NCBI GenBank assembly: GCA_016713505.1
Contig: JADJPA010000001.1
Span: 1,037,105 to 1,101,104 of the forward strand
Length of the DNA: 64,000 nucleotides
Direction of reading: 5' to 3'
DNA from: Candidatus Competibacteraceae bacterium
GTDB lineage: Bacteria; Pseudomonadota; Gammaproteobacteria; Competibacterales; Competibacteraceae
In this document: positions 4,185 to 61,796 of the stretch, one piece after another
Layout: each line of letters opens with the position of its first letter
Numbering within the stretch: position 1 is the first letter of the stretch
The notes under the pieces: model-generated
Databases searched by the model: none
What the model was told of the DNA's origin: nothing
What the model saw: the letters and a program-made list of their open reading frames with translations, nothing else
Made by a program: the position numbers and the translations under genes

Positions 4185-7453
<3,269 letters not shown>

Positions 7454-7714
7454 TTTTCGAACCGCTCGCTCGACGAACTGCGGCTATACTCAAGAGCAGA
7501 TCGGGTGGTGACGCCGCCCGTGACGCCGCGCCGTTCGCTTCAGACTGACGTTCGAGCGCTCCGAGCGGAGCCACCTGGCCCCGGACTTTCAGCTAGCCTT
7601 TCAGGAAGGAGCGAGATCGCTGCGACGGTTACCTCACCATCATAAATTGGATTTTTGTAGGTTCTGTTTTTACCATAGCAATTTTATAGAAGATCGAGCG
7701 TGAGAGAGTTAAGT

Positions 7715-9625
7715 ATGAGCGAACGGGTGGATGGCCAAAGCAGCGGTCAACAAGGCCTTGAGGAACGAAATGAAATTTTGCAGAACGCCGCGCCAGAATT
7801 CTTTTTTCTAAACAACGCGTATTTAAATACCTATATCCAATTGCTGAAAAATATCCGCCACCATGGCGGTCTTTTTTTATTAACAGGTACCCACGGTCTC
7901 GGTAAAACTTTCTTGCTGCGCAAATTGGAAAGCGCGGCGCCTGAAAATATTAAATTTATTTTCATCGATACGGTCAATTTAAATTACGAAAGTTTGATTG
8001 CCAGACTGTACGATCAACTTGGTCTGGGTCAGACCGAGCGCCATCTACCTAGCCAAAACCAAAGTTCGGTATTAAAAGATTATTTAAACGAGGGTTCCTC
8101 CCAGCGGGCGAGCGTGGCTTTATTGATCGATGACGCCCAAACGCTGGGTGAGGCAGGGCTGGCGCATTTGATCGCTTTATTCGATTGGACGCTGCCAGAG
8201 CGTCGCGCCCCACGCATCGTCCTCAGTGGATCGCCCGAGTTACAAGAAATGGTGGCTCGCATTGAGATCGGGCAGAGCATCGCCGCCCGTCGGTTGAATG
8301 TCCGTTTGGAGCCGCTGGCTGAAAATGATGTGGCCACTTATATTTCGCATCAATTGAATACGGTCGCCACGCCAGAAATGAACCCCCTGTTTTCCCGATG
8401 GGCCATTCAAAAGATTACCCGTTTGACCGGTGGTGTTCCCCGGCTGATCAATACACTTTGCGATCGCGCCTTTTCTTTAGCACAGTTGAAGGGCAAACAT
8501 ACGGTTTCAATGCTTGCGATCGATCAAGCCGCTAAAGAGTTACTGTTGGAGGCTGAGGAGAGTAGCGCCAGCGGCCTCACGCTCGTCCCTGGAAATACCA
8601 ATTCGTTACACGACTCCTTCAGGCATCTCGAAGGCTCGCGACTCACCAAAATTGCTAGCCATGTCATTGGCGATGAGGCCGATGCGATCATCATGAGCGC
8701 TTCGCTGGCGAGCCATAATAAGCCCGGAGCGGAGCTTGACGAGACCGTCAATGAGGCGGTTTTGCAAAATACCGCGGAATATCCGGTTACCGCCGTGTAT
8801 TTTGAAAAGGCGGACTCAGAAGATCTCCCTGAGGTCACTCATTCGGTAACGCCTACCGCTTTGAGCGTGTCCCGAAACACTGACGTGGCGAAGCATCAAT
8901 TTGTCGATCAGCTGTTGGAAGATAAATTGTTGGCCAATGCGACGATGACCATGCAATGGGAGGAACCCTATCTCAAGAAAAACCAGCCTCCGTCCTTTTC
9001 ATCGCCGACTTTGCAATTTATTACTTTGATTTTCATTTCGATCTTGGCCGGGATCGTCGGTGGAGTCGGCAGCTATTATTTATTTGATAGCAAGCCAGTC
9101 CAGATATCGGTCGTCACGCCTGGCGCCGTGGCGCTCGCCGTCGAGTCGAAGACCTCGGCTCAAACCGCTCCGGTGTTAAAGCCGGTCGCCGCGCCCGATC
9201 CCGCGGCATCCGCCGCGCCGGCCAGCGCCGAGTCGCAAAAACCCGAATCCTTAGCGAGTGTGGCTCTTACCCCTCCCACGCCCGCCGTGGAGCCGCCGCC
9301 CGCCGTCCCCGCGCGGTTGCCCGCCAGAGTGAAAGCTAGTCCTGAAACCCCGCAGCTCTGGTCGTATGTGAGCAAAGGCGATGCGTTGCTGGCGCAGGGT
9401 GATGTGGCCTCCGCGCGGTTGTTCTATCTGGAGGCGGCCGGCGCGGGCTTTGCCCCCGCCATGACCGCCGTCGGCAAAACCTACGACCCCATCGTGTTGG
9501 GCAGTTTGCAGATCAAGGGGTTCTTCGCCGATCCTCAAAAAGCCGTGGAGTGGTATTTGAAGGCACAACAAGCGGGAAACCCTGAAAGTACAGGATACCT
9601 TCAAGCCTTAAAAGGCAGTCGATAG
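7715..9625 (+). CDS. ExeA/GspA-like AAA+ ATPase fused to a TM segment, Pro/Ala-rich linker and C-terminal Sel1-like repeats
   Basis: Walker A GTHGLGKT, Walker B ALLIDDAQ and an ExeA-like tail (GGVPRLINTLCDRA). One TM (FITLIFISILAGIVGGVGSYYLF). Sel1-like ARLFYLEAAGAGFAPAMTAVGKTYDP...KAVEWYLKAQQAGN. ATG 7715 follows GAGAGAG; alternative GTG at 7700. Visibly lower GC than neighbours. Confidence 0.75.
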   Translation: MSERVDGQSSGQQGLEERNEILQNAAPEFFFLNNAYLNTYIQLLKNIRHHGGLFLLTGTHGLGKTFLLRKLESAAPENIKFIFIDTVNLNYESLIARLYDQLGLGQTERHLPSQNQSSVLKDYLNEGSSQRASVALLIDDAQTLGEAGLAHLIALFDWTLPERRAPRIVLSGSPELQEMVARIEIGQSIAARRLNVRLEPLAENDVATYISHQLNTVATPEMNPLFSRWAIQKITRLTGGVPRLINTLCDRAFSLAQLKGKHTVSMLAIDQAAKELLLEAEESSASGLTLVPGNTNSLHDSFRHLEGSRLTKIASHVIGDEADAIIMSASLASHNKPGAELDETVNEAVLQNTAEYPVTAVYFEKADSEDLPEVTHSVTPTALSVSRNTDVAKHQFVDQLLEDKLLANATMTMQWEEPYLKKNQPPSFSSPTLQFITLIFISILAGIVGGVGSYYLFDSKPVQISVVTPGAVALAVESKTSAQTAPVLKPVAAPDPAASAAPASAESQKPESLASVALTPPTPAVEPPPAVPARLPARVKASPETPQLWSYVSKGDALLAQGDVASARLFYLEAAGAGFAPAMTAVGKTYDPIVLGSLQIKGFFADPQKAVEWYLKAQQAGNPESTGYLQALKGSR

Positions 9626-9678
9626 CCGGTTCCTCGGCGCTGGAAACCACGGATGTAAAGGAGTTGCCCAATAAAGGC

Positions 9679-10659
9679 TCACCGGTGAGTTTGCAGCCAT
9701 TGCTCCACGGCCGGAAAGCGGGTCCAGCCAGGGAGGGTCGCCGATAAGCTGACTTCGCGCCATTTGGGGTGGCGTGGCGGCTTTTGGAAGTCATTGAGAT
9801 GCTCTAAAAAATAAGTCGCGAAGTCGGCGACTTTTTTATGGCGCTTGACCTTTCGTGGATGCCATTGGTAGACCGCCAGCACGGCGCTGACCGCAATTGT
9901 TCTGATCTCTTCACCGCCAGGAATCAGATTCGGATAATCCTGATGGCTAATGGCGGCGGGAGGGTAGGTATCCAACAACCCAGCACTGTAATCGATCGCC
10001 AGCAAGTGTAAGTTTTCAGCAGCTGTTATTTTCTCGAACAAAGTCACCGGCTTGCCCGCGACATAAGCCAGCGCGCTGATCTCGCCATTTTTCAGTTTTT
10101 CCAAGGCGGTCGCTTGGTCGTAATGGGTGGGCTCCACACGCATTTTCAAGGTATCGAACAGGATGCTGGCGGTGATGGCCGTACCGCTGCCTTTAACGTC
10201 AAAATTGACTTTTTTACCTGTTAAATCTTCGAGATTATTGATGTCGCCCTTAGCGATCAGATGAAATTCTTCATTGTACAATTTGGTGATGTAGCTTATT
10301 TTCTTATCGATGTTTGAATACGTGTTTTGGCGCTTTAAATATTCCAGCACATCGGATTGGACGATGGCCATATCGATGCCTTTCAAATATAAAAGATCGT
10401 CGATATTTTGGATCGATCCCTGACCTACAATGGTCAGAACGCGTAGGGTGGGATTGTCCAGAACTGCGGCCATATCGGCGGCAATGCGGATATAGGTTCC
10501 GCTGACGCCGCCCGTGATGATGCCGACCACGCCTTTATTCGAAAGACGGCCCGCGCGGTCTGGCGGGCTGGCGTCTCGATCCGCCGGGGAGGCGGCCAGG
10601 GCGATGGACAACAGGCTCGCCAGCCATAGCCAAACGCCATAACGAAGAACTTTATTCAT
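9679..10659 (-). CDS. TAXI-family (TRAP-associated, NMT1-like) periplasmic solute-binding protein, orphan
   Basis: Trimmed to ATG 10659 (MNKVLRYGVWLWLASLLSIALAA, signal peptide). TAXI-like block VGIITGGVSGTYIRIAADMA...QGSIQNIDDL. No TRAP permease gene nearby. Lower GC. Confidence 0.8.
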   Translation of the reverse strand: MNKVLRYGVWLWLASLLSIALAASPADRDASPPDRAGRLSNKGVVGIITGGVSGTYIRIAADMAAVLDNPTLRVLTIVGQGSIQNIDDLLYLKGIDMAIVQSDVLEYLKRQNTYSNIDKKISYITKLYNEEFHLIAKGDINNLEDLTGKKVNFDVKGSGTAITASILFDTLKMRVEPTHYDQATALEKLKNGEISALAYVAGKPVTLFEKITAAENLHLLAIDYSAGLLDTYPPAAISHQDYPNLIPGGEEIRTIAVSAVLAVYQWHPRKVKRHKKVADFATYFLEHLNDFQKPPRHPKWREVSLSATLPGWTRFPAVEQWLQTHR

Positions 10660-10679
10660 ACCTTGCAATCCTGCCGTGT

Positions 10680-11405
10680 TTAGGGTTCTGATTCTATCCA
10701 TCCCCACCGCTCGGCGGCAAAAAGTTCGTGGGGTTTGAAATGGGTTTTGTAAGCCATTTTATCGCATTGTTCGATCCAGTAGCCGAGATACAACCACTGT
10801 AAGCCAAGCCGCCGCGACTCGGCGATTTGCCATAGGATCGCGAAAGTGCCCAATCCGCGCGCTTTTTCCTCGGGGTCGAAAAACGTATAAACCGCCGATA
10901 GGCCGTTCTCCAAGCGGTCCAGGACCGCGACCGCCAGCAGTTCCCGCTCGCGGCGGAATTCGGCCAGACCGGTCGGGCTCCAGCGCGAGGTGATGAAGGA
11001 CCAATAGTTTTCCGGATTGGTGGGATCCATGCCGCCACCGGTATGCCGGACCCGCAGGTAGCGGCTGAATAGCTCAAAATGCTCTTGCTTGAATTCCGCA
11101 TTGAGCACTTGAGCTTGCAAATCCTGATTTCGCCTCAAGATGCGGCGCTGCGAGCGATTCGGCTGAAAGCGTTCCACCGGAATGCGCAGCGACCGGCAGG
11201 CCATGCAGCCGCGACAGTGCGGCCGGTAGACGTGATCGCCGCTGCGCCGGAATCCCAACTCCGCCAATCGCGTGTACAGGCGCCGGTCAGTCTCGGCCGG
11301 ATCGGCGACCAGGTTGCGGGCTTGGCGTCCTGGCAGATAGCTACAGGGATAGTCGGTCGTCAGAAACATCCGCAGGTCATATAGCGAATCCCGAAAGTCG
11401 CTCAT
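10680..11405 (-). CDS. bpt: arginyltransferase-family aspartate/glutamate leucyltransferase (N-end rule)
   Basis: Trimmed to ATG 11405 (MSDFRDSLYDLRMFLTTDYPCSYLPGR...). ATE_N Cys-rich block HCRGCMACRSLR and an ATE_C region. Start overlaps the aat stop (ATGA). Confidence 0.85.
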   Translation of the reverse strand: MSDFRDSLYDLRMFLTTDYPCSYLPGRQARNLVADPAETDRRLYTRLAELGFRRSGDHVYRPHCRGCMACRSLRIPVERFQPNRSQRRILRRNQDLQAQVLNAEFKQEHFELFSRYLRVRHTGGGMDPTNPENYWSFITSRWSPTGLAEFRRERELLAVAVLDRLENGLSAVYTFFDPEEKARGLGTFAILWQIAESRRLGLQWLYLGYWIEQCDKMAYKTHFKPHELFAAERWGWIESEP

Positions 11406-21536: not shown

Positions 21537-23111
21537 CTAGCGGCGCAAGTACCCGAGTTCTTTGGGCAAGGCGATATTGTTGCCGAAATGATCTTCGCCG
21601 TACCCCGATTCAGCCAGCAACGCCAGATCGCTCAGCACTCGCTTGTCACCGACGAAGGCGATGCTCAACTCGGTTTTGATATCGAGCTGGCCGGTCGCTT
21701 GCAGCTTGGCGATTTCCTTGGTCACCGTTTCGAGCAGTATTCCGTCCTTGCTGAATTCATCCGACAACTGGAGCGGTTGTTGGTAAATGACAATCTTGCT
21801 CTGTTCCGCCAGTTTGATGATGATATCGAGGATGGCGGCTCTGATTTGGGCGTCGCTCAGCTCGCCCGGGGGCAGGGACTGGCGGCCGATTTCCGCGACC
21901 AGCCAGCGCCGTTTCTGCGCGTTGATTTTTTCGTTGGCTCGGAAGATGTCCATCGGCGAACCCGCGTCGTAAGACTGGCCATCCAACTCCATGATAATCA
22001 AGCTGCCATAGTGTTGCACGATGCGCGCGATCAAGGTCGAGGGGCGCACGTGAAAGCCGCGATAAGAGGGGACCGGCGCTTCGATCCGGCCGATTTCGGC
22101 GTAGCGCCTGAGCATGGTGTGGCAAAAACACCGGCCGTAGGTCAGATAAAGCCCGGAGAACGCGATGGAGTAATTCATCAGCATGGCCAGCAGCGTGCCG
22201 GGCGCGATGACCGGCCGGCGCCGGAAGGCGGAATCGCCGGTTTGCTCGTTGAGGTGGCGTTCGTAGTAATGGACCAGATAAGTGGCTATTTCCAATAAGT
22301 GGAACACGATGCTGATGTGCCCCCGCAGGGTGGGCAGGTTCTGATCCAGGGATTCGATTTCGGTTTCCGAGACGTAGGTGTCATAAAGCGATTGGAGGCA
22401 GTGAAACCGGACTTTCAAATACCGCAGGTTGTCTTCGCTGATCGGGTCCGGGAAACAGGTCGCGTAATCTTTGGGCTCCACTTTTTCGGCGGTATTCAAA
22501 AGCTCGCTGTCCGCAGCCAGGTTCAAATAGGCAGTTGCAAGATAAGTAACTGTTTCAGAGGCGCTTTTTATTTTACGCATGGCGCGGTTATGCAATAAAC
22601 GCCCTTGCGGGAGCTGTTCGCGATAGCGTTCCGCTGGAAGTTCGGTGGCGGGGACGTCGATCCCCAGCCGGTCGGCTTGCACCAGCAGCCAAGTCGCCGC
22701 CCGCACCAGCACATCGTAGGTCAGTTCCAAGGATTGGAGGGTGGCGGCGGCAAAGTCCCGATCGACCGGTAACAGCCGGTAGGAAGGCAGACAGTGGTGG
22801 ATGTGCAACAGCTCGTAACTGACTTCCGCAAACAGCTTGATGGTGGCGACCAAGGAGCGAAACCGACACCACTGGCGGTTGTTGCGCGCGCCATAGATAT
22901 CCAGCAGTTCTTCGACCAGCAGGGATTGCGCCAGCAGATCGGCGACCAGCGGTCGGGTGAAAGCGCTGGCGCGCGGCTGCCGGGCTGACAAAAATCGAGC
23001 GATCGACAGTAAGTTGCCAGCCCGCTGTTCGAGTAGATCGATGAACTCGCCATCTTTGAGGATGACCGATTTTTTGGGGTGGGTGGAATCTGTATCCGCC
23101 GTTGATGTCAT
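21537..23111 (-). CDS. hypothetical protein with all-alpha N-terminal region and an embedded HPr-like phosphocarrier domain
   Basis: 524-aa ORF with coding-like composition and lower GC. Residues about 340-400 read IEAPVPSYRGFHVRPSTLIARIVQHYGSLIIMELDGQSYDAGSPMDIF, resembling the HPr His-15 region (GLHARPA...). A late SIAFVGDKRVLSDLALLAE block resembles the last HPr strand-helix. Confidence 0.65.
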   Translation of the reverse strand: MTSTADTDSTHPKKSVILKDGEFIDLLEQRAGNLLSIARFLSARQPRASAFTRPLVADLLAQSLLVEELLDIYGARNNRQWCRFRSLVATIKLFAEVSYELLHIHHCLPSYRLLPVDRDFAAATLQSLELTYDVLVRAATWLLVQADRLGIDVPATELPAERYREQLPQGRLLHNRAMRKIKSASETVTYLATAYLNLAADSELLNTAEKVEPKDYATCFPDPISEDNLRYLKVRFHCLQSLYDTYVSETEIESLDQNLPTLRGHISIVFHLLEIATYLVHYYERHLNEQTGDSAFRRRPVIAPGTLLAMLMNYSIAFSGLYLTYGRCFCHTMLRRYAEIGRIEAPVPSYRGFHVRPSTLIARIVQHYGSLIIMELDGQSYDAGSPMDIFRANEKINAQKRRWLVAEIGRQSLPPGELSDAQIRAAILDIIIKLAEQSKIVIYQQPLQLSDEFSKDGILLETVTKEIAKLQATGQLDIKTELSIAFVGDKRVLSDLALLAESGYGEDHFGNNIALPKELGYLRR

Positions 23112-23289: not shown

Positions 23290-23303
23290 TTATTATATCA
23301 TCT
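23290..23303 (-). repeat. copy a of recurrent intergenic motif (minus strand reads AGATGATATAATAA); extended -10-like
   Basis: Read directly. GATGATATAATAA is identical to 60819..60831. Contains TGATATAAT (TGnTATAAT). Lies about 180 nt upstream of the minus-strand HPr-domain gene, so it is compatible with a promoter here. Confidence 0.7.
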
Positions 23304-23600
23304 TTTTATCGATGAAATTAGCGTTTTATCCTTGAAAAAGAACCGACTGCTGGCGCATCCGGCGGATGGGCCGATGAAGCGCAGCATAAGCCTATCATTT
23401 CCATATCGATAACGGAGTGCTAAACAAGGGAACGATTGACATACGCTCAAGATAGGCTTTACTTTCTGATGTCTGCTCCGGCAACCTCGGATGGCTCGGC
23501 GCGGAGCATCGATAGGCCATTCAGCACTGCGGTCCGGGAGCGACCGATCTGAACCCACCACGAACCGCATAACCACATCATCATAATGAGGAGTCACTAG

Positions 23601-24806
23601 ATGGCAAACAAAGAAGTCGTGATTGTTGGCGCCGCCCGGACGGCCATCGGCAAATTCATGGGCACCCTGAAAGACGTTCCGGCGCGCGAACTGGCGATCA
23701 CCGCCGCCAAGGCCGCGATCGAGCGGTCCGGCGTTCCAGCCGACCAGATCGACGAAATTTGCATGGGCCAGCTCTACGGCGGTATGCAAGGTTCTTTGCC
23801 GGCGCGGCAGGTGAGCATGCGGGTCGGGCTGCCCCATCGCAGCAGCGCTGTCTGCGTCAATCAAAACTGTACCTCCGGCATGCGCGCGCTGGAAATCGCG
23901 TGCCACAACATCATGCTCGGCCAGACCGAAATCGGGCTGGTGGTGGGCGTGGAGAGCATGACCAACGCCCCCTATCTGCTGCCCAAGGCCCGCATGGGGT
24001 ATCGGATGGGGCAGGGCAACATCGAAGACAGCATGATTCACGACGGTTTGTTCGATGAGCTGGTGCCGGGCCACATGGCGATGACGGCGGAGAACGTCGC
24101 GGTCAAGTACGGCATCACCCGGCAGGAATGCGACGAGCTGGCGCTGATCAGCCATAGCCGCTGCACCAAGTCGACCAAGGAAGGCGTCTTCAAGCGCGAA
24201 ATCGTGCCGGTCGAGATGAAATCCAAAAAAGGCTCGACCTTTTTTGAGGCCGACGAGAACTTCATCCCCGATGCCAGCATGGAAAAGATCTCCAAGCTGC
24301 CGACCGCCTTTAAGAAGGACGGCGTGGTGACGGCGGCCAACGCTTCCAGCATCAACGACGGCGCCAGCGCGGTGGTCATCATGTCTTCGGACAAGGCCAA
24401 GGCCCTGGGCCTCAAGCCGCTGCTGAAGCTGGTCAGCATCTGCAACGCTGGCATCGATCCGGTGGTGATGGGCCTGGGTCCGGCGGTGGCGATTCCCAAG
24501 GCGCTCAAGCAGGCGGGCATGAAGTTCGAAGACATCGACTATTGGGAAGTCAACGAAGCGTTTGCCGCCCAATGGCTCGGCGTCGGTCGGATGCTCAAGC
24601 AAGATCACGGCATGAACCTCACCACGGACAACTGCAACTTCAACGGTTCCGGCATCGCGCTGGGCCATCCGGTCGGTTCGACCGGGCTGCGGATCATAGT
24701 CAGCCTGTACTACGAACTAGAGCGTCAAGGCAAGACCACCGGCGGCGCTTCGCTGTGCGTCGGCACCGGCCCGGCCATGGCCTCGCTGTGGACCCGCAAT
24801 ATCTAA
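23601..24806 (+). CDS. acetyl-CoA C-acetyltransferase (thiolase II)
   Basis: 401 aa with a thiolase N-terminus (VVIVGAARTAIGKFMG), active-site Cys region (VNQNCTSGMRALE) and C-terminal GNCNFNGSGIALGHPVGSTG / CVGTGPAMA blocks. RBS GAGGAG upstream. Confidence 0.9.
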   Translation: MANKEVVIVGAARTAIGKFMGTLKDVPARELAITAAKAAIERSGVPADQIDEICMGQLYGGMQGSLPARQVSMRVGLPHRSSAVCVNQNCTSGMRALEIACHNIMLGQTEIGLVVGVESMTNAPYLLPKARMGYRMGQGNIEDSMIHDGLFDELVPGHMAMTAENVAVKYGITRQECDELALISHSRCTKSTKEGVFKREIVPVEMKSKKGSTFFEADENFIPDASMEKISKLPTAFKKDGVVTAANASSINDGASAVVIMSSDKAKALGLKPLLKLVSICNAGIDPVVMGLGPAVAIPKALKQAGMKFEDIDYWEVNEAFAAQWLGVGRMLKQDHGMNLTTDNCNFNGSGIALGHPVGSTGLRIIVSLYYELERQGKTTGGASLCVGTGPAMASLWTRNI

Positions 24807-38309: not shown

Positions 38310-39365
38310 TTAGGGTTGGGATTTGCGAGTCGATTTCGCGGATCGGGATTTAGGGGGTTTTGTTAAAGCGGGAGAGGCTGCGGCAGACGGCGATTGCGGT
38401 TGCCACCGATCTCGGTCGGCGCGCATCGCCTTGAGTTCACCACGCAGCGCTTCAAGCTCGCGCACCGTTTCGAGATGTTGGATTTCCGAGCTTTCACGGA
38501 GGGTTTGCAGTTTTTGCAGCTCCGCCGCTAGATGGGTTTGGCGCTCCTGAGCGGTCGCTAGATCAGCCTTGAGTTCGGCGGTTTCGGCGCGTTGGTTTTC
38601 TTGTTGGGCACGCCATGCGGATTCGAGGCGAGTCCACTCTTGGCGCTCGCTGGCGAAGCGTTCTCGTTCGGTATTTTGTTCGGCGCGCAGTTGGTCGATC
38701 AGACCGAGCCAACGGGATTCGCTGGCTTCGTTACGCCGTTGTTCCGTTTCCAAATCTTGTTGGGCTTGATGCCGTTGGTGTTCCAAATCAGTTCGGGTTT
38801 GTTGGAGCGCGGTTTCAAGCTGGGCGACGCGAGCGGCGGTTTCGGCGCGGAGTTGATCGGCGGTTTGCGCGGCGGATCGGGCGCGCGCCTCGGCGGCTTG
38901 AATCGCGGTTTCGGCGTTGGCGCGGCGCTCTTGTTCCACTAACAGGCGGTCGGCGAGATCGCGGGCGGCCGTTTGGGTCGTTTCAAGCTGGCGGCGCAGT
39001 TGGTCGATCTCGCTTTGGATTTCGCGGCATTGGTTGAGGGTGGCCTCGCGGGCTTGCTCGGCGGCGGCGGCGGTTTGGGCCGCGATTGCGCGTTGGTCCT
39101 CGAACGCCGATTCGGCGTGTTGCACGGCGATTTTCCAGAACGCATCCAAGGCGAGCGCGACGGCTTCGGGAACGCTCGGCGGCAAAACGATTTTGGGCGT
39201 TTCCGCAAGCTGCTGTTGCCAGATTTTCAGATGCTCGCTGATGGTGGTGTTGCTGCCGGTGCCGAGCGCTTCGCGAACGCGCTGGATGGTGGGATTAAGG
39301 CCGCGTCCGAGTAAGGATTCGGCGGCGTCGCGAACATTTTCAAACGTAATTCCAGTGCGGGCCAT
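38310..39365 (-). CDS. KfrA-like DNA-binding protein with a long coiled-coil tail
   Basis: The N-terminal 60 aa (ITFENVRDAAESLLGRGLNPTIQRVREALGTGSNTTISEHLKIW) match my recollection of the KfrA_N plasmid-type DNA-binding domain. The remaining 290 aa or so are Q/E/R/A-rich heptad-like coiled coil. Confidence 0.6.
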   Translation of the reverse strand: MARTGITFENVRDAAESLLGRGLNPTIQRVREALGTGSNTTISEHLKIWQQQLAETPKIVLPPSVPEAVALALDAFWKIAVQHAESAFEDQRAIAAQTAAAAEQAREATLNQCREIQSEIDQLRRQLETTQTAARDLADRLLVEQERRANAETAIQAAEARARSAAQTADQLRAETAARVAQLETALQQTRTDLEHQRHQAQQDLETEQRRNEASESRWLGLIDQLRAEQNTERERFASERQEWTRLESAWRAQQENQRAETAELKADLATAQERQTHLAAELQKLQTLRESSEIQHLETVRELEALRGELKAMRADRDRWQPQSPSAAASPALTKPPKSRSAKSTRKSQP

Positions 39366-39428
39366 GATTTTGAGGGTATCCCTGATTATTGAGAGTTGAG
39401 TCGATTCTATAATAATAAATGATTACAT

Positions 39429-39438
39429 AATACGTATT
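39429..39438. promoter_or_regulatory. perfect 10-bp palindrome AATACGTATT in the AT-rich promoter region of the KfrA-like gene (candidate auto-operator)
   Basis: Palindrome read directly, 64-73 nt upstream of ATG 39365 in a 120-nt AT-rich tract with several TATAAT-like hexamers. RK2 KfrA is known to autoregulate via an operator in its own promoter. Confidence 0.25.
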
Positions 39439-39487
39439 TATGCTGATCTTTCACTTATGAAATTCAAGATTATTCTTATAATCATGA

Positions 39488-39877
39488 ATTATACTTTCGC
39501 CTCAAAAGCGCTTTGAACTCGCTGGTTGGCTGGCCAAAAGCGTTGCCCGTCCGCCAGATCGCGGATTTTGGCTGGAACAAGCGATTTTTCAAACGCTGCA
39601 AGCGTGGCGCGCGCTCGACTCGCTCAATCGCTGCCTCTATTTCTGGCGGGACCGTTCCAGGCGGGAAATCGATTTTGTGCTGGAGAAAAACGGCGTGCTG
39701 GTCGGCTTGGAAATCAAGGCGTCTTCTCAGGTCACGCCGGCGGACGCCTCCGGCATCCGAGCGTTTCAAGACGCTTTGAGAACGGGTTCATCGTTTCGGC
39801 GCGGCGCGATCCTCAACAGCGGCGCGGTGCGTCTGATCGCTGAAAACATCCATGCCTTACCTTGGGGCTGGATGCTG
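39488..39877 (+). pseudogene. 5'-truncated remnant of a DUF4143-type AAA+ ATPase gene
   Basis: Open frame with no start codon, translating ...GFWLEQAIFQTLQAWRALDSLNRCLYFWRDRSRREIDFVLEKNGVLVGLEIKASSQVTPADASGIRAFQDAL...IHALPWGWML. This is the C-terminal DUF4143/restriction-endonuclease-like part of such ATPases. The whole AAA+ N-terminal half is absent, and the frame then runs on antisense into the next gene. Confidence 0.5.
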
Positions 39878-39910
39878 CCCATAACGCCTTCAAGGCGGTT
39901 TTCCGCAATC

Positions 39911-42544
39911 CTATTCCGCCGCCGCGCCCGGCGTATCCAGATAAAAAAATACGTTCTGTTTCATTGTATTGGCATTGAAGCGCAACATCGCCCGATACTG
40001 ATCGCTCGGCAGGTCGATCACCCGCACGCACTCGGCCCATGGCGCGGCGTTCGGCAACAACTCCGCCAGCCGGTTGGCTTGCTGGTCGAAAAACGCCCTG
40101 TTGATTCGGTTATCCTGCCGCTGCGGGAACACCGCCAGATACAGGATGTCGGTTTCGACCAGATCGCTGAAGAAATGGGTGCCTAGCGACACATCCGGCA
40201 CCAAGCCCTCGTGCATCGCCACCAGCTCGCACAGCACCGCCGCGTTGTTGATTTCCGCGAAGCGCACCGGCACGCCCAGCTCGGGCGAGGCCGTACCCCA
40301 GCGGCCCGGACCGATCAACAGCAGCGACTTAGCCGCATCTGGCCCGCGCAAGCGGGTGATCTGGCCGATTACGCGGGCGATCTGGTGACGTTCGTTCAAC
40401 GGCAATTGGCTGTAAACCGCCGGGACCACATAAACCAAACGGTCGATGGTGCCGATCCGGCTGTGACCGATCACCGCACCGTGCGCCTCCAGCACCAGCC
40501 GCTCCGGCGCGATGCGCTCCGGCGGGTTCGCAATGGTGCCCGCCTCCTTCACCTGAAACGGCCGACATTGCACCAAATCGATCTTGTAACGCCCGCCGTC
40601 GATGAAATTGGCCGTGAACTCGACATCCACCGGATAATCGTACGCCTGCTGCAAGATGCGCAACATCTCGCGCATGTCATTCACGAACGGCGTGTTTCGC
40701 AGCAAGTGCTCGAAGGTCAACACCCACGGAAACACCTCCTGCATCCCTCGCTCGCGCGCCCGCTGTTCCAACTCGTCGTCCACCGTCGCCACCATTTGCA
40801 ACGGCAAATCCGGGCTCTGTTGCGCCACGTCGGCGAACTGGCGGGTGGAAAGTTGGTTCGCTTCCAGATCCAGCACGTCGATCCGCTTCTGGGCGTACTG
40901 GCGCACGCTGTCGAAATGGCTTTCCGGCCGGCGTTCGGGATCGCTCAGCGACACCACCCGCGTATAGTCATCGTCCGACCGATCCACCGCCCGCGTCCCC
41001 AAACCCATGACGAGTCGCACCATCCCCGCCGCCGGGTCGATATGCTCGCTCCATACATAAGGATTGAACGACAGTCCGACTCCGGCCATGTGCGGATAAA
41101 ACAAATTGCCGTGCTGCGCGCCGGACACCCGCTGCACCAGCAAACCCATTTGTTCGTCGCGGTCTAAAATCCCCCGCCGCACCCGGTACATCAGCGCTCG
41201 CTCGCTCATGGTGCTGGCGTAGATGGTGCGCACCGCCGTCAGCAAGTCGTCCAGCCGCTTCTCGCGCGGCCCCTGATTGACGCAAAACACACTGTCGTAC
41301 TTGCCGGCGAAGGCGTTGCCGAAATTGTCCTCCAGCAAGCTGCTGGAGCGGACGATGATCGGCGATTGACCGAAGTAATCCAGCATATCGGAAAACTGCT
41401 GCATCACGTAATCTGGGAAATCGCCGCGCAAGATGCGCCGCCGCGCCGTTTCCGCCCCATCGAGAAACGTGGCCGGATTTTTCTGCTTGTCTCGCACCCA
41501 CCAGCAGCCGTTGCGCACGAGATAGCTGTAAAACACATCCGAGCCGACAAAAAAAGAATCGTGGATTTCCAGCAGCTCGCGCCAGCGCGGCTCGGTCCGT
41601 TGCAGAATGGCCCGCGCCAGCATCACCCCGACCGCTTTACCGCCGATCAGGCCCGTGCCGATCATCCGTTCCCTGATCGCCAAAATATCGCCCAGAGTCA
41701 GATAGCGCTCCGCCAGTTGCATCACCCGCTCGTCGCGCGACACCGTCATCCGCAACGTCCGCTGCAACAGGTCGCGATCCAAATCCTTCACCGGCACATT
41801 CGCGTGTCCGGCGGCCACCACCTCCTCGACTTCTGAAAACGTGCGATTCCAGATGTCGAGTCGAGGATCGTTCGCCTTCAAGCCCGACCAGGGAAACAGC
41901 GTCAAAATTTGAGAAATGGTCACGCTGTCCGTAACCGGCGCGAACTCCTCGCCGCGCCACACGTGTAACAGGTGCATGGTCGGCGAATAGCGTTGCTGGA
42001 CCTTGAGCGGACGGACGTACAATTCGCCCTGATGCCGGTAAATATCGCTGAACAACTGGGTGGTATCGAGAATCGGCGCGGTGGCGTGAAAGGAATGATG
42101 GCCGCGCATCAGCGCGAAATAGGCGATCGTTTCTAGGTCGTACAGATAAGGGCAGGTCAGCATGAAAAAATTGCCCAGCATCTGATCGCTGTACCAGTCG
42201 GCCACCAGATCGGACAAACAATCGAATACGTAATACGCGCCGCGCCCGGACTGTTCGATGGTGGTGTGGATCGCGCTCAGGAACGGCTCGAAGCCCTCGC
42301 CGGGGTCCAGCACTTGAATGTCCACGCCCGGACCTTCCGCCACCAACGCTGGATGGCGGGCGAAGTGGAAATAGACCAGCTTGCGGCCTCTGTCGCGGGC
42401 GTACTGGCAAAAAGGTTCCACCAGTGGCCGGTAATCGTCGATGCTGTCTGCCTGCCAGACGATATTGTCGCCCGCCATGATACCCCGGAAAACCCGGTCC
42501 AGACCGGCCAGCCCGGTGCTGACTTGTGCGTCAATTGCCGCCAT
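39911..42544 (-). CDS. PEP/pyruvate-binding (PPDK_N-type ATP-grasp) domain protein with a P-loop-less RecA/KaiC-like N-terminal domain
   Basis: Trimmed to ATG 42544 (MAAIDAQVSTGLAGLDRVF...) preceded by AGGGGAGAGGG. The N-terminus is laid out like KaiC/Rad55 (GLAGLD...VYFHF...VFDCLSDL) but lacks a GxxxxGKT loop. The central part carries PPDK_N-like blocks (GTGLIGGKAVGVMLA; IIVRSSSLLEDNFGNAFAGKYDS). Confidence 0.75.
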   Translation of the reverse strand: MAAIDAQVSTGLAGLDRVFRGIMAGDNIVWQADSIDDYRPLVEPFCQYARDRGRKLVYFHFARHPALVAEGPGVDIQVLDPGEGFEPFLSAIHTTIEQSGRGAYYVFDCLSDLVADWYSDQMLGNFFMLTCPYLYDLETIAYFALMRGHHSFHATAPILDTTQLFSDIYRHQGELYVRPLKVQQRYSPTMHLLHVWRGEEFAPVTDSVTISQILTLFPWSGLKANDPRLDIWNRTFSEVEEVVAAGHANVPVKDLDRDLLQRTLRMTVSRDERVMQLAERYLTLGDILAIRERMIGTGLIGGKAVGVMLARAILQRTEPRWRELLEIHDSFFVGSDVFYSYLVRNGCWWVRDKQKNPATFLDGAETARRRILRGDFPDYVMQQFSDMLDYFGQSPIIVRSSSLLEDNFGNAFAGKYDSVFCVNQGPREKRLDDLLTAVRTIYASTMSERALMYRVRRGILDRDEQMGLLVQRVSGAQHGNLFYPHMAGVGLSFNPYVWSEHIDPAAGMVRLVMGLGTRAVDRSDDDYTRVVSLSDPERRPESHFDSVRQYAQKRIDVLDLEANQLSTRQFADVAQQSPDLPLQMVATVDDELEQRARERGMQEVFPWVLTFEHLLRNTPFVNDMREMLRILQQAYDYPVDVEFTANFIDGGRYKIDLVQCRPFQVKEAGTIANPPERIAPERLVLEAHGAVIGHSRIGTIDRLVYVVPAVYSQLPLNERHQIARVIGQITRLRGPDAAKSLLLIGPGRWGTASPELGVPVRFAEINNAAVLCELVAMHEGLVPDVSLGTHFFSDLVETDILYLAVFPQRQDNRINRAFFDQQANRLAELLPNAAPWAECVRVIDLPSDQYRAMLRFNANTMKQNVFFYLDTPGAAAE

Positions 42545-42725: not shown

Positions 42726-43892
42726 ATGACGATGATCCCCATTCCCCCCGCAACCCTGGCTTCACCCTTGCCGCTGGAGCGGCTGCGGGTGCCGGAAACG
42801 CTGGACGGCCGCGCCGGCGCCAACCGGGCCGGACCCGATGTGATCTGTCAGCTAGCCGCCAGTAACGATCTGGAAGCCGTGCGCGCCTGGCTCGCCGAAT
42901 TCCACGACTCACCGCAAACCCTGCGCAACTACCGCAAGGAAGCCGAGCGCCTGCTGCTCTGGGCGTTACTGGAGCGCGACAAAGCCCTCTCCAGCCTCAC
43001 CCGCGAGGATTGCCTGCTCTACGAAGCTTTTCTTGCCGACCCACAACCTCGCGAACGCTGGTGCGGGCAAAAAGCACCCCGCTTCAGCCCGCGCTGGCGA
43101 CCGTTTCTCGGCGCGCTCAATCCCGCCAGCCGCAAGGTCGCCATGCTGATCATCAACTCGTTGTTCAGCTATCTGGTCAAGGCCGGTTATCTGGCGGGCA
43201 ATCCGTTGGCGCTCGCGCGCCGCCGCGCGCGCGGCCAACAGTCCGCGCGACAGGTGGAGCGCTTTCTCGAACACGATCAATGGCAAGTCTTGCTGGCCAC
43301 GGTGGACGAACTGCCTCGCGATGAGGAACGCGACCGCCAGCACCACGCCCGCGCCAAATATCTGCTCGCCTTGCTCTACCTGCTCGGTCCCCGGGTCAGC
43401 GAAGTCGCCAATCATGCCATGAGCAGCTTCATGCAGATTCGCGGGCGCTGGTGGTGGCGCGTGATCGGCAAAGGCCGCAAGGAAGCCCAGGTGCCGGTCA
43501 ATCAGGACATGCTGCAAGCGCTGCGCGACTACCGTCGCTTTTACGGTCTCTCCCCCTTGCCCGCCCCGGACGATGCCACCCCGCTGGTGTTGAACCTCAA
43601 GGGCACCGGCGGTATCGGCGACAACATGATTTATCGGATCGTCAAGGAATTAGTGGCCAAGGCGGCGGCGCGACTGGAAGCGGAAGACCCTTATCAGGCT
43701 GAAAAACTGCGCCGCGCTTCCACCCACTGGTTCCGCCACACCAGCATCACCCATCAGGCCGACGCCGGCATCGACATTCAATTTTTGCAGCGCAACGCCC
43801 GCCACGCCCGCATCGATACCACCGGCCTGTACCTGCACGCCGAAGAAAAGGAATGGCACGAAACCATGGAACGCCATCGCCTCAAGGAATAA
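42726..43892 (+). CDS. tyrosine-type site-specific recombinase/integrase
   Basis: 388 aa with an N-terminal SAM-like core-binding domain (TLRNYRKEAERLLLWAL). Catalytic domain has box I GPRVSEV, box II HWFRHT, RHARIDTT and the nucleophile Tyr in TGLYLH. Confidence 0.85.
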   Translation: MTMIPIPPATLASPLPLERLRVPETLDGRAGANRAGPDVICQLAASNDLEAVRAWLAEFHDSPQTLRNYRKEAERLLLWALLERDKALSSLTREDCLLYEAFLADPQPRERWCGQKAPRFSPRWRPFLGALNPASRKVAMLIINSLFSYLVKAGYLAGNPLALARRRARGQQSARQVERFLEHDQWQVLLATVDELPRDEERDRQHHARAKYLLALLYLLGPRVSEVANHAMSSFMQIRGRWWWRVIGKGRKEAQVPVNQDMLQALRDYRRFYGLSPLPAPDDATPLVLNLKGTGGIGDNMIYRIVKELVAKAAARLEAEDPYQAEKLRRASTHWFRHTSITHQADAGIDIQFLQRNARHARIDTTGLYLHAEEKEWHETMERHRLKE

Positions 43893-59664: not shown

Positions 59665-59811
59665 ACGAGCCGAGCGGATCTTGGAGCGCGGCATGTCTTT
59701 GCGGGAGGCTCTCGGGCGTGCGTTATGCGGTGGTCAAACGGCCGGTTTTGACGCCTTGAGTGGCGGTCACTGGGTAGGCGACCGCGATGTTTCCGCTTGG
59801 AGGGGTTATCC

Positions 59812-60786
59812 GTGAAATTGCAGCAACTGCGTTATCTGACGGCGATCGTTCGTAATAACCTGAACATTTCCGCCGCGGCGGAGAGTTTGTATACCTCTCA
59901 GCCGGGTATCAGCAAACAGTTGCGCCTGCTGGAAGAAGAACTGGGTGTCGAGCTGTTCAACCGTAACGGCAAGCACTTGACCGAAATTACCCCTATCGGG
60001 CAGCAGATTATTCTGAAGGTCGAAACTATTTTGCGTGAAGTCAACAATATCCAGATTTTGGCCGAGGAGTACCGCGATGATCGCCGCGGCAGCTTGTCGC
60101 TGGCCACCACCCACACTCAAGCACGCTACGCGCTGCCGCCCGTCATCAAGGTGTTTCGAGAGCGCTATCCGGCGGTCAACTTACAGGTGCATCAGGGCTC
60201 GCCGATGCAGATCGCCGAGTTGGTGCAATCGGGCGAGGTTGATTTCGCGATCGCCACCGAGTCCCCGGAATTGTTTGGAAATTTGGTTATGATGCCTTGT
60301 TATGTGTGGCACCGTTGCGTGCTGGTTCCAGTCGGCCACCCTTTGAGTCGGGTGGAGCGTTTGACGTTGTATGATGTGGCGCAATATCCGCTGGTGACTT
60401 ATGTCTTTGGTTTCACCGGGCGCTCGCAACTGGATGGGGCGTTCCGCAGCGCGCATTTGAAACCGAGCGTGGTTTTTACCGCGACCGATGCGGACGTGAT
60501 CAAAACCTATGTCCGCTTGGGGATGGGCGTCGGGATCGTGGCTAGAATGGCTTATGATCCCAAGCAGGATCAGGATTTGGTGCGCTTGGACGCCAGTCAT
60601 CTGTTCCCGTCCAACATCACCAAAATTGGTTTCAGGCGCGGTATGTTTCTGCGCCGTTATATGTATGATTTTATGGAACTGTTCTCGGCGCATTTACAAC
60701 GCGAGCGGGTGCGCGCCGTCGAGCGGTTGCAGACGGTCGAGGAGATCGCTGAGGTTTTTGAGGGTTTGGAGCTGCCGGTTAGGTGA
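59812..60786 (+). CDS. cysB: LysR-family transcriptional regulator CysB
   Basis: GTG 59812 preceded by GGAGGGG (the ORF track lists TTG 59797). The N-terminus VKLQQLRYLTAIVRNNLNISAAAESLYTSQPGISKQLRLLEEELGV closely resembles E. coli CysB. Confidence 0.85.
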   Translation: MKLQQLRYLTAIVRNNLNISAAAESLYTSQPGISKQLRLLEEELGVELFNRNGKHLTEITPIGQQIILKVETILREVNNIQILAEEYRDDRRGSLSLATTHTQARYALPPVIKVFRERYPAVNLQVHQGSPMQIAELVQSGEVDFAIATESPELFGNLVMMPCYVWHRCVLVPVGHPLSRVERLTLYDVAQYPLVTYVFGFTGRSQLDGAFRSAHLKPSVVFTATDADVIKTYVRLGMGVGIVARMAYDPKQDQDLVRLDASHLFPSNITKIGFRRGMFLRRYMYDFMELFSAHLQRERVRAVERLQTVEEIAEVFEGLELPVR

Positions 60787-60817
60787 GGTTTGGATGGTTT
60801 TTTGGTTATATAAAAGG

Positions 60818-60831
60818 TGATGATATAATAA
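60818..60831 (+). repeat. copy d of recurrent intergenic motif (TGATGATATAATAA); perfect extended -10 (TGATATAAT) 27-40 nt upstream of the Tus-like ORF
   Basis: Read directly. 13 nt are identical to copy a (reverse complement). 14/15 identical to copy e. Confidence 0.75.
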
Positions 60832-60857
60832 GAGGTGACGCAGTGGAGGAAACCAGC

Positions 60858-61760
60858 ATGCCCGCACCCGCTCCATCGATGGTCCTACTGAGGACCGAAT
60901 TACTGGCCGCTTACGATAGCTTGCTCGGACATCTGGACGAATGTTGCGCTCGCATCCGTCGCGACGCGACGCTGGCCGCCTGGGTGTCGCGCACCGAAGC
61001 CGAGATGCAAGAAGCCGCTGACATGCGCTTCAAGGCGATCCAGCTCTATCGCGCGCTTTGGTACGAAGAGGCGCGAGATGGCCGGGAAACCCTCACCTGC
61101 CCCGGCATCGTCGGCGCCGGCCAGGAAACGCTCCTGTCCGCCTCTGCTTGTAATGCCGCCAAGGATCGCTTCAAGGCGGCGGTATTGGCCCTCAAGTCCC
61201 TGGCGCGACCTGAAATCCAGGCGGCCATGACCGATCTGCACCGCCGTCAGGAAGCACTGGCGGACGCCATGCGCCGCATGGGAACCGCCCGCTTGAACCT
61301 CAAACAAGCCTACCGGCATATTCCGCTGCTCGATCAGCGTCCCCTAAAGATTGGCTTTACCTGGTCCAAGCAAGGGCGGGTGATCCAGCGCACCAGCCAG
61401 GCCACGGCTCGCCGATTGCTGGAACAACGGGTCGAGACGCCGCAAATCATCTTGGAATTACAACGGCTTGCCCAACTTGGCGGCGATGAGATACTGGCGC
61501 GGGTTCGCAGCGTTTGCCCTCACCTGCGCGCCAATCTCGTCTTTGCGGCCGAGAGCGGGTCAGGCGTGCGCCGCCGCCTCATGCAAGCGCCACTGCCGAT
61601 CTTGATACCGTTGCAACCCGGCCAAACGCTGCCTGAGTTCGTACCGGTGGCCCCCGAACCGCCGCTCACCCCTCGACTCCGACGGGCCGATGTGCGCATC
61701 GAGGATGAACCCTTGCTTCCGTCGGTGCGTGTCCATCGCTATCGCGCCCCTTATCGCTGA
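60858..61760 (+). CDS. hypothetical protein, candidate divergent Tus-like DNA replication terminus site-binding protein
   Basis: Frame 60783..61760 trimmed to ATG 60858 (GGAGGA 7 nt upstream), giving 300 aa. Colinear blocks resemble my recollection of E. coli Tus (309 aa): [86 protein letters not shown]/RLHLY. The CDS itself is likely real; the family assignment is unverified. Confidence 0.45.
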   Translation: [300 protein letters not shown]

Positions 61761-61778: not shown

Positions 61779-61796
61779 GAAGATGATGATATAATA
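61779..61796 (+). repeat. copy e of recurrent intergenic motif (GAAGATGATGATATAATA); perfect extended -10, about 150 nt upstream of glgX
   Basis: Read directly. The 16-mer 61779..61794 is the exact reverse complement of 24866..24881. Lies 19 nt after the stop of the Tus-like ORF. Confidence 0.75.

Follow-up and report, generated by a model that had tools for sequence, protein, structure and literature searches.

Reviews regard Tus-based replication fork traps as a specialised feature of few bacteria, with Tus recently domesticated from plasmids, and the literature limits resident Tus to Enterobacterales, Aeromonadales and Pseudoalteromonas, treating other matches to the Pfam family PF05472 as mobile. 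In Escherichia coli MG1655, tus has the site TerB (AATAAGTATGTTGTAACTAAAGT) on its own strand, overlapping the -10 region, with 10 nt between the end of the site and the ATG. The type I traps of Enterobacterales outside the Enterobacteriaceae (Edwardsiella tarda, Dickeya paradisiaca) have a Tus 46-59% identical to that of E. coli and Ter sites 74-83% identical to TerB, with C(6) conserved (Toft et al., 2021; PMC8707476). We analyzed a stretch of 64,000 nt from a Candidatus Competibacteraceae genome (contig JADJPA010000001.1, positions 1,037,105 to 1,101,104), hereafter the window, which carries a gene for a Tus-like replication terminus protein that we call tusL. The host is Candidatus Competibacter/Competibacteraceae, non-enteric as an earlier note made from the letters of the window had supposed. 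The product of tusL probably binds a set of 16-nt sites that occur on both sides of a dif-like element, forming a polar fork trap around dif with autorepression of the gene.

The tusL open reading frame (ORF) occupies positions 60858..61760 on the + strand and encodes a protein of 300 residues with an isoelectric point of 10.06, identified from ORF, profile and fold evidence. The gene model of the earlier note was correct: the ORF begins at ATG 60858, with GGAGGA at 60845-60850, 7 nt upstream. We prefer this start over a GTG at 60783 because the homologues in public data (one 100%-identical protein of 300 residues and 272 further sequences) have the same N-terminus. As the note had also remarked, no enzyme domain was detected in the protein with Pfam or NCBIfam.

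The relationship to Tus was found with a deep profile. The window protein alone has no relevant match in Pfam, NCBIfam or the PDB (phmmer), PF05472 being absent even at E<=10. A profile of 23 close homologues (about 70% identity, all Candidatus Competibacteraceae) did not find Tus either, and its hhalign comparison with E. coli Tus (in the sequence of 1ECR chain A) was collinear over 225 columns at E=0.21, below significance. A search for homologues of E. coli Tus gave, among the matches listed, only sequences of at least 82% identity, unfit for a diverse Tus profile. We relied on a deeper alignment, A2, which joins the window protein to 88 diverse representatives (26-55% identity) for a total of 89 sequences. 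The A2 profile matched E. coli Tus in the PDB (4XR2, 4XR0, 1ECR) with E=2.2e-8 over profile positions 8-263, the next match having E=0.47, and hhalign aligned it to Tus over 233 columns with 95.2% probability and E=2.5e-8. PF05472 was the only Pfam family found among the A2 members and was matched by 56 of the 89 at E<=0.01 (best 6.9e-11); of the close relatives, 6/23 matched it weakly (best E=4e-4). Members from Piscirickettsia and Legionellales exceed the Pfam cutoff of 22 bits for PF05472, only over 50-70 residues, and the window protein and its Contendobacter orthologue P0076 fall below it. Homology to Tus is therefore established transitively, through the family and not through the curated model, and the protein is almost certainly a remote Tus homologue.

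The earlier note had reached Tus by comparison with segments of the E. coli protein, and most of this comparison was recovered. The collinear similarity that it described is real with the deep profile and lies below significance for the single sequence; its segment pairings, including one ending GWANK, reappear in the HMMER and hhalign alignments made with that profile, and the PF05472 and profile searches that it suggested came out positive once enough homologues were used. Two details fared less well. The segment LKQAYRH...FTWSK aligns to Tus residues 153-175 and does not include R198, which lies in a Tus-specific insertion, and the sequence alignments stop short of the C-terminal region in which SVRVHRY had been paired with PRLHLY.

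Structure prediction agreed with the profile searches. An AlphaFold2 model built from A2 without templates had a predicted local distance difference test score (pLDDT) of 90.9 and a predicted template modelling score (pTM) of 0.86; a model from a shallow alignment, with pLDDT 47, was discarded. Foldseek comparison of the model with 350,542 PDB chains returned four matches at E<=1e-3, all of them E. coli Tus (E 1.7e-13 to 2.5e-12, template modelling (TM) scores 0.60-0.66, about 325 aligned columns, 14-15% identity), and the best match to anything else had E=0.05. The model thus matches the two-domain Tus architecture only, the outcome for which the note had proposed a fold comparison, and the window protein is predicted to have the Tus fold, with two domains and interdomain beta-strands. 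Aligning both the window protein and Tus to the A2 hidden Markov model (HMM) placed the interdomain-strand residues Y156, R157, W172 and A173 of Tus opposite Y152, R153, W169 and S170; R153 is invariant in 89/89 A2 members and W169 is kept in 82/89. Tus K89 and R198 have no aligned counterpart, Q250 stands opposite a conserved arginine, I79, counted with the C(6) pocket, aligns to Y69, and Tus residues 43-59 and 198-210 have no counterpart in the window protein. The RTP/Ter system of Bacillus subtilis, which resembles the present one in concept only (barriers to forks from one side, grouped on either side of the terminus in opposite orientation), uses in contrast a winged-helix dimer of unrelated fold, with no sequence or structural match to the window protein.

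The tusL gene is flanked by a near-perfect direct repeat of 17 nt (60814-60830 and 61780-61796), from which we recognized a 16-nt site, AGATGATGRTATAANA. With up to three mismatches the site occurs five times in the window, against 0.03 copies expected. A scan of the window with a position weight matrix (PWM) found exactly these five, at 29-34 bits, and nothing else reached 14 bits; scans covered the whole window and, at related loci, flanks of up to 10 kb. The logo from 148 unique sites of the window and 67 related loci shows a non-palindromic core of 16 nt matching AGATGATGRTATAANA, with uninformative flanks. Because the flanks of the five window copies are unrelated, we take the repeated unit to be a short site rather than a piece of a mobile element.

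Two of the five sites lie on the + strand beside tusL. Site R1 (AGGTGATGATATAATA, 60815..60830, 29.7 bits) is the inner member of the right cluster, with its end 27 nt short of the ATG; it covers a predicted extended -10 element, TGATATAAT, with TATAAT at 60824-60829. Site R2 (AGATGATGATATAATA, 61781..61796, 29.8 bits) begins 20 nt past the tusL stop codon. The other three lie on the - strand. The innermost of these, L1 (27518..27533, 29.0 bits), is located between the convergent genes for a DAHP synthase (+) and a DnaJ-domain protein (-) and for that reason cannot act as a promoter. L2 (24864..24879, 34.1 bits) lies about 90 nt upstream of serS on the strand opposite to it, and L3 (23291..23306, 29.2 bits) is the outermost left site seen. 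Two - strand ORFs of 524 and 456 residues without a Pfam match at E<=1e-5 (21537-23111 and 23298-24668) are flanked by these two outer left sites. The site contains a TATAAn hexamer, whose sixth position is T in only 28/148 sites (19%), which argues against selection for a -10 box, and the conserved part of the logo continues for 9 nt upstream of this hexamer. We rejected the view that the motif is just a promoter on the strength of the logo, of the copies located between convergent genes or after stop codons, and of a polarity that follows dif and not the genes.

The space between the two clusters contains a putative replication terminus, marked by GC skew. On the + strand the skew has positive values between 1 and 39 kb and negative ones between 40 and 57 kb, its cumulative maximum lies at 38-40 kb, and it switches from +0.20 to -0.10 at 39100..40000, with the fine-scale sign change at about 39.4 kb. 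A change from positive to negative skew is the direction of a terminus. The switch is not a gene-strand effect, because - strand genes are present on both sides. In the same AT-rich gap, at the skew sign change, lies a dif-like 28-mer, ATTCAAGATTA-TTCTTA-TAATCATGAAT (39462..39489), with inverted arms of 11 nt around a 6-nt centre; it is unique in the window, where none is expected. The element thus has the architecture of dif, being 28 bp long, organized as 11-6-11, unique, and situated at the skew terminus. Its arm TAATCATGAAT/TTATCTTGAAT resembles the XerD arm TTATGTTAAAT, and it matches E. coli dif at 18 of 28 positions; a search of the window for E. coli-type dif at a threshold of at least 18/28 matches gave nothing convincing.

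The dif-like element is kept at the orthologous position in syntenic metagenome contigs, and the pattern ATTCWWGATWA-N6-TWATCWWGAAT occurs once each in loci L057, L061, L064 and L066, between opposed site clusters in the last three and left of tusL in L057. Next to the 28-mer, at a distance of 16 nt and in the same gap, is a second, imperfect palindrome with dif-like arms and a 7-nt spacer (ACATAATACGTATTTATGC, 39422-39446), which we considered as dif and dropped in favor of the conserved 11-6-11 element. Among the matches listed in a metagenome search (L086-L205), the same pattern recurs widely in contigs from gut, sea and soil that vary greatly in GC content; these dif-anchored matches are mostly from unrelated organisms, with flanks too short to judge polarity. 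Apparently this is a dif-type sequence of common occurrence that departs from the E. coli-like consensus.

The order along the window is therefore three - strand sites (23.3-27.5 kb), the dif-like element with the skew switch (39.4-39.5 kb), and a + strand site, tusL and another + strand site (60.8-61.8 kb), with 33.3 kb between the inner sites of the opposed clusters. To ask how general this polarity is, we surveyed 67 loci whose proteins are 53-94% identical to the window protein, counting sites of at least 18 bits. Just upstream of tusL we found 51 sites, in 50/67 loci; just downstream there were 49, in 48/67 loci; and a further 44 lay farther right. All 144 of these sites at or beyond tusL are on the strand of the gene. 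On the left side ten sites are inverted, nine of them above 23 bits, and there are only two same-strand exceptions, both below 21 bits. Individual sites are recognizable across loci: in L001 the site orthologous to R1 ends 4 nt before the start codon, and in L001 and L002 a third + strand site lies between convergent genes (DJC28_CD and DUF2058). Skew on the right flank is negative in 43/44 Competibacteraceae loci and 10/10 loci of distant lineages, and it changes sign across the inner gap in L062 and L066.

The gene's surroundings are conserved as well. Its upstream partner is cysB (59797..60786, + strand), whose identity, already given in the earlier note, is confirmed by a match of 514 bits to NF009326 (cutoff 436). 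Upstream of cysB in the window are glgB, glgC and malQ, and downstream of tusL is a GlgX-type gene, so the glg neighbors named by the note were also right. This malQ-glgC / glgB-cysB-tusL-glgX neighborhood is conserved in Competibacteraceae, including the 3.6-Mb record CP065007.1, in which the gene lies at 1.246 Mb, and the adjacency of cysB and tusL is kept in L001-L004, L047, L048, L058, L061, L064 and L066. The pair and its flanking sites persist with either serS or glgX as the downstream neighbor. The note had described cysB and tusL as a wedge of lower GC content splitting the glg genes, with a hint of recent insertion. This is correct for cysB and the AT-rich intergenic gaps (0.54-0.57) and incorrect for the tus-like gene itself, whose GC content of 0.60-0.635 is like that of its surroundings. 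Recent horizontal insertion we rejected because synteny is conserved across the family; the cysB-tusL pair is found together across the whole order and predates the glg genes beside it. Elsewhere in the window, positions 7000-11000 have a GC content of 0.53-0.56 against 0.62-0.68 around them and may be a horizontally acquired segment.

The most divergent Competibacterales have a compact form of the same system, in which a DnaJ-domain gene (-) is followed by - strand sites, the dif-like element, a gene for a Xer-like recombinase, cysB, a + strand site, tusL, a + strand site, serS (-) and a last + strand site. The opposed inner sites are 3.9 kb apart in L064 and about 5 kb apart in L066. The window, L061, L064 and L066 have in common the order of - strand sites, dif-like element, and tusL between two + strand sites, the inner gaps of the three loci being 3.9-5 kb. 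L2 has an orthologue next to serS in L057, L064 and other loci, where it is located on the same side of dif as tus and has + polarity; in the window, both serS and this site are across dif and the polarity is reversed, the arrangement expected from an inversion through dif.

The recombinase gene of the compact form has a relative in the window at 42726..43892 (+ strand; Pfam Phage_integrase, 388 residues), whose product comes closest to XerC/XerD among the NCBIfam models, its 81 bits being far below their cutoff of 335. In the compact-trap genomes its homologues adjoin the dif-like element (L064 3345-4460, L066 7849-8970, L061 5203-6327). By analogy with XerH/difH or XerS/difSL, recombinase and dif-like element may form a dedicated single-recombinase module; alternatively, the recombinase may be part of a dif-integrating element. 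Immediately left of the dif-like element, at 38310-39365 on the - strand, is a gene for a protein with a KfrA_N domain (a plasmid replication-region DNA-binding N-terminus, E=1e-22) and a long coiled-coil-like tail, homologues of which occur near dif in L057, L058 and L067.

From the fold of the protein and the conservation, polarity and placement of its presumed sites we infer DNA binding, polar fork arrest and autoregulation. The divergent Tus-family product of tusL would bind the asymmetric site, most likely as a monomer, and the opposed clusters would enclose a zone of 33 kb holding the skew terminus and the dif-like site at 39.46 kb. Each site turns its AGATG end towards dif, and by analogy with TerB-tus of E. 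coli this end would be the non-permissive face, such that forks could enter the zone and not leave it. With R1 located over the predicted -10 box, bound protein would also repress tusL. The trap would be of type I as defined by Toft et al. (2021; PMC8707476), because its innermost site is the one next to tus.

The proposed trap shares with that of E. coli a two-domain protein (1ECR, 2I06, 4XR0; PF05472) with collinear profile homology, Y, R and W residues that align in the DNA-reading strands, a basic character and a length of about 300 residues. It also shares an asymmetric, cognate-looking site on the gene's own strand over the promoter, opposed site clusters around dif and the skew terminus, and a gene transcribed away from the terminus. 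The two differ in the very low protein identity, in the failure of the window protein alone to match PF05472, in the pocket residues F140, H144 and G149 of Tus, and in the site itself (AGATGATGRTATAANA in Competibacter, AGNATGTTGTAACTAA in E. coli). In layout the proposed trap also resembles the type I traps of E. tarda and D. paradisiaca, in which the innermost site also adjoins tus and a narrow trap of few sites is centred on dif and the skew switch, although both protein and site are far more divergent in Competibacter than among those traps. The compact versions differ further in their size (3.9-5 kb, compared with 18 kb for the narrowest reported, in Dickeya) and in including the Xer-like recombinase gene and cysB inside.

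Several observations weigh against the proposed fork trap. The A2 HMM alignment shows no conservation of the C(6)-lock pocket residues of Tus (PMC10331603, Table 1): F140 is replaced by D136 and H144 by R140, both in variable columns, G149 aligns to R145, which is arginine in 79/89 members, and E47, E49, K89 and R198 lie within Tus-only insertions. This part of the alignment is the least reliable, since the region is a low-pLDDT loop (residues 123-134). The logo has a conserved G at two 5' positions, whose equivalence to G-C(6) is not established. On the alignment, a C(6) lock is not demonstrated in the window protein, yet it is not disproved, and because the pocket residues are not conserved, the mechanism of arrest may differ from the C(6) mousetrap of E. 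coli. The 16-nt site itself agrees with E. coli Ter at about 7/16 positions in an ungapped comparison by eye, no more than chance would give, and the window lacks an E. coli-type Ter core. Some copies of the site contain a perfect extended -10 box, TGnTATAAT, and the dif-like element was assigned from architecture only. At loci of distant lineages (L068-L084), scans within 10 kb with the Competibacter PWM and for the E. coli Ter core found no copy of either. Finally, inversions through dif would leave the polarity of the sites intact in any case, and the many loci therefore do not count as separate evidence for selection, even though the pattern of sites is precisely that of a fork trap.

The strongest alternative is that a protein of Tus fold binds these sites as a transcription factor or nucleoid organiser only, repressing its own or neighboring genes without arresting forks. 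The overlap of R1 with the predicted -10 box upstream of tusL, the position of several sites upstream of genes such as serS, and the lack of conservation in the lock pocket would all fit such a protein. Operators, however, would not be expected to show a strict polarity that inverts across dif and the skew switch, nor to lie between convergent genes or just past stop codons without an obvious regulatory target. In addition, PMC4499146 describes a lock-independent component of polar arrest by Tus, a dynamic clamp. We therefore consider binding without arrest unlikely.

A second alternative dissociates the motif from the Tus-like protein, making it a strong extended -10 element, or a site of CysB, of the Xer-like recombinase or of a system like FtsK and its orienting polar sequences (KOPS), which clusters near the terminus by chance. 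KOPS are indeed polar motifs whose orientation switches at dif, cysB and the recombinase gene are conserved neighbors, and TGnTATAAT is present in some copies. A -10 element is difficult to reconcile with the rarity of T at the sixth hexamer position, the conservation 9 nt upstream of the hexamer and the copies between convergent genes. Five 16-nt sites per 64 kb are unlike the dense 8-nt KOPS, the kilobase spacing is unlike that of recombinase arm sites, and in about 50 of the 67 genomes the sites bracket tusL whether its neighbor is glgX or serS. An unrelated motif is, in our judgment, distinctly improbable. That the similarity to Tus is fortuitous and the ORF encodes an unrelated conserved hypothetical protein, as the lack of any Pfam, NCBIfam or PDB match for the single sequence and the subsignificant close-family profile could suggest, is extremely improbable, given that the deep profile, hhalign, the Pfam scan of family members and the template-free structure all point to Tus alone.

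The gene family is large. Grouped at 50% identity, the matches of an exhaustive HMMER search form 721 clusters at E<=1e-3, of which 391 reach E<=1e-10; most members are about 300 residues long and matched over their full length. The earlier note had expected a Tus homologue in such a genome to be unusual. The literature does limit resident Tus to few groups, but the family's 721 clusters come from other Gammaproteobacteria and from megaplasmids. Chromosomal relatives at 33-39% identity include proteins of Piscirickettsia salmonis, Legionellales, Berkiella, Motiliproteus, Thalassolituus and Marinobacterium. In complete chromosomes the gene is near the midpoint, at 1.53 of 3.08 Mb in P. salmonis (49.7%) and at 2.96 of 5.81 Mb in Motiliproteus (51%), positions that are suggestive only, because the start points of the records were not checked. 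By GC skew, the distant homologues (L068-L084) are all on the lagging-strand side.

Relatives at 26-37% identity are also encoded on 28 large plasmids and megaplasmids of Halomonas, Pseudomonas, Marinobacter, Vibrio, Azotobacter and Methylophaga (for example NZ_CP130702.1 196232-197059); some are annotated as Tus and others as hypothetical, and they bear on the hypothesis of a plasmid origin for tus. In this respect the family resembles the mobile plasmid tus genes of R1 type (Galli et al., 2019; PMC6549158). The Competibacteraceae gene differs from these in its order-wide conserved chromosomal context, which is one of the two residency criteria of Galli et al. (PMC6549158). Annotation of the family is inconsistent: two Contendobacter orthologues, P0076 in NCBI and P0119 in UniRef, are named 'DNA replication terminus site-binding protein' (P0076 itself lacking a PF05472 match), and about 100 close relatives are named 'hypothetical'. 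In the literature searched we found no paper linking Tus to these lineages. The Tus family itself was already known; as judged from sequence, what is new here is the site, the absence of conserved lock residues and the compact dif-centred module.

These distributions suggest a broader proposal, which we put forward tentatively and with somewhat less than even confidence. A large and ancient Tus-like clade may be chromosomally resident in non-enteric Gammaproteobacteria (Competibacterales and probably Piscirickettsiaceae, Legionellales and Oceanospirillales), with its own Ter code, no C(6) pocket and a different means of polar arrest, and with an ancestral module of about 4 kb in the order Ter(-), dif, Xer-like recombinase, cysB, Ter(+), tus, Ter(+). 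If true, such a clade would overturn the view of Tus-Ter as a recent and narrow domestication from plasmids.

A conserved, chromosomal, terminus-located Tus-like system in Competibacteraceae would in itself widen the known range of Tus, and the L064 trap of 3.9 kb would be the narrowest natural one so far. A second, very divergent pair of Tus and site would allow one to ask which features of polar arrest are essential, for instance whether the C(6) lock is dispensable, and the long-debated question of why fork traps exist would become testable in a new context. The Competibacteraceae are uncultured glycogen accumulators important in wastewater treatment, and relatives of the protein are found in pathogens such as P. 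salmonis and in Legionellales. Family members now mostly annotated as 'hypothetical' could be renamed, and the motifs of site and dif could help to find replication termini in metagenome-assembled Competibacter genomes.

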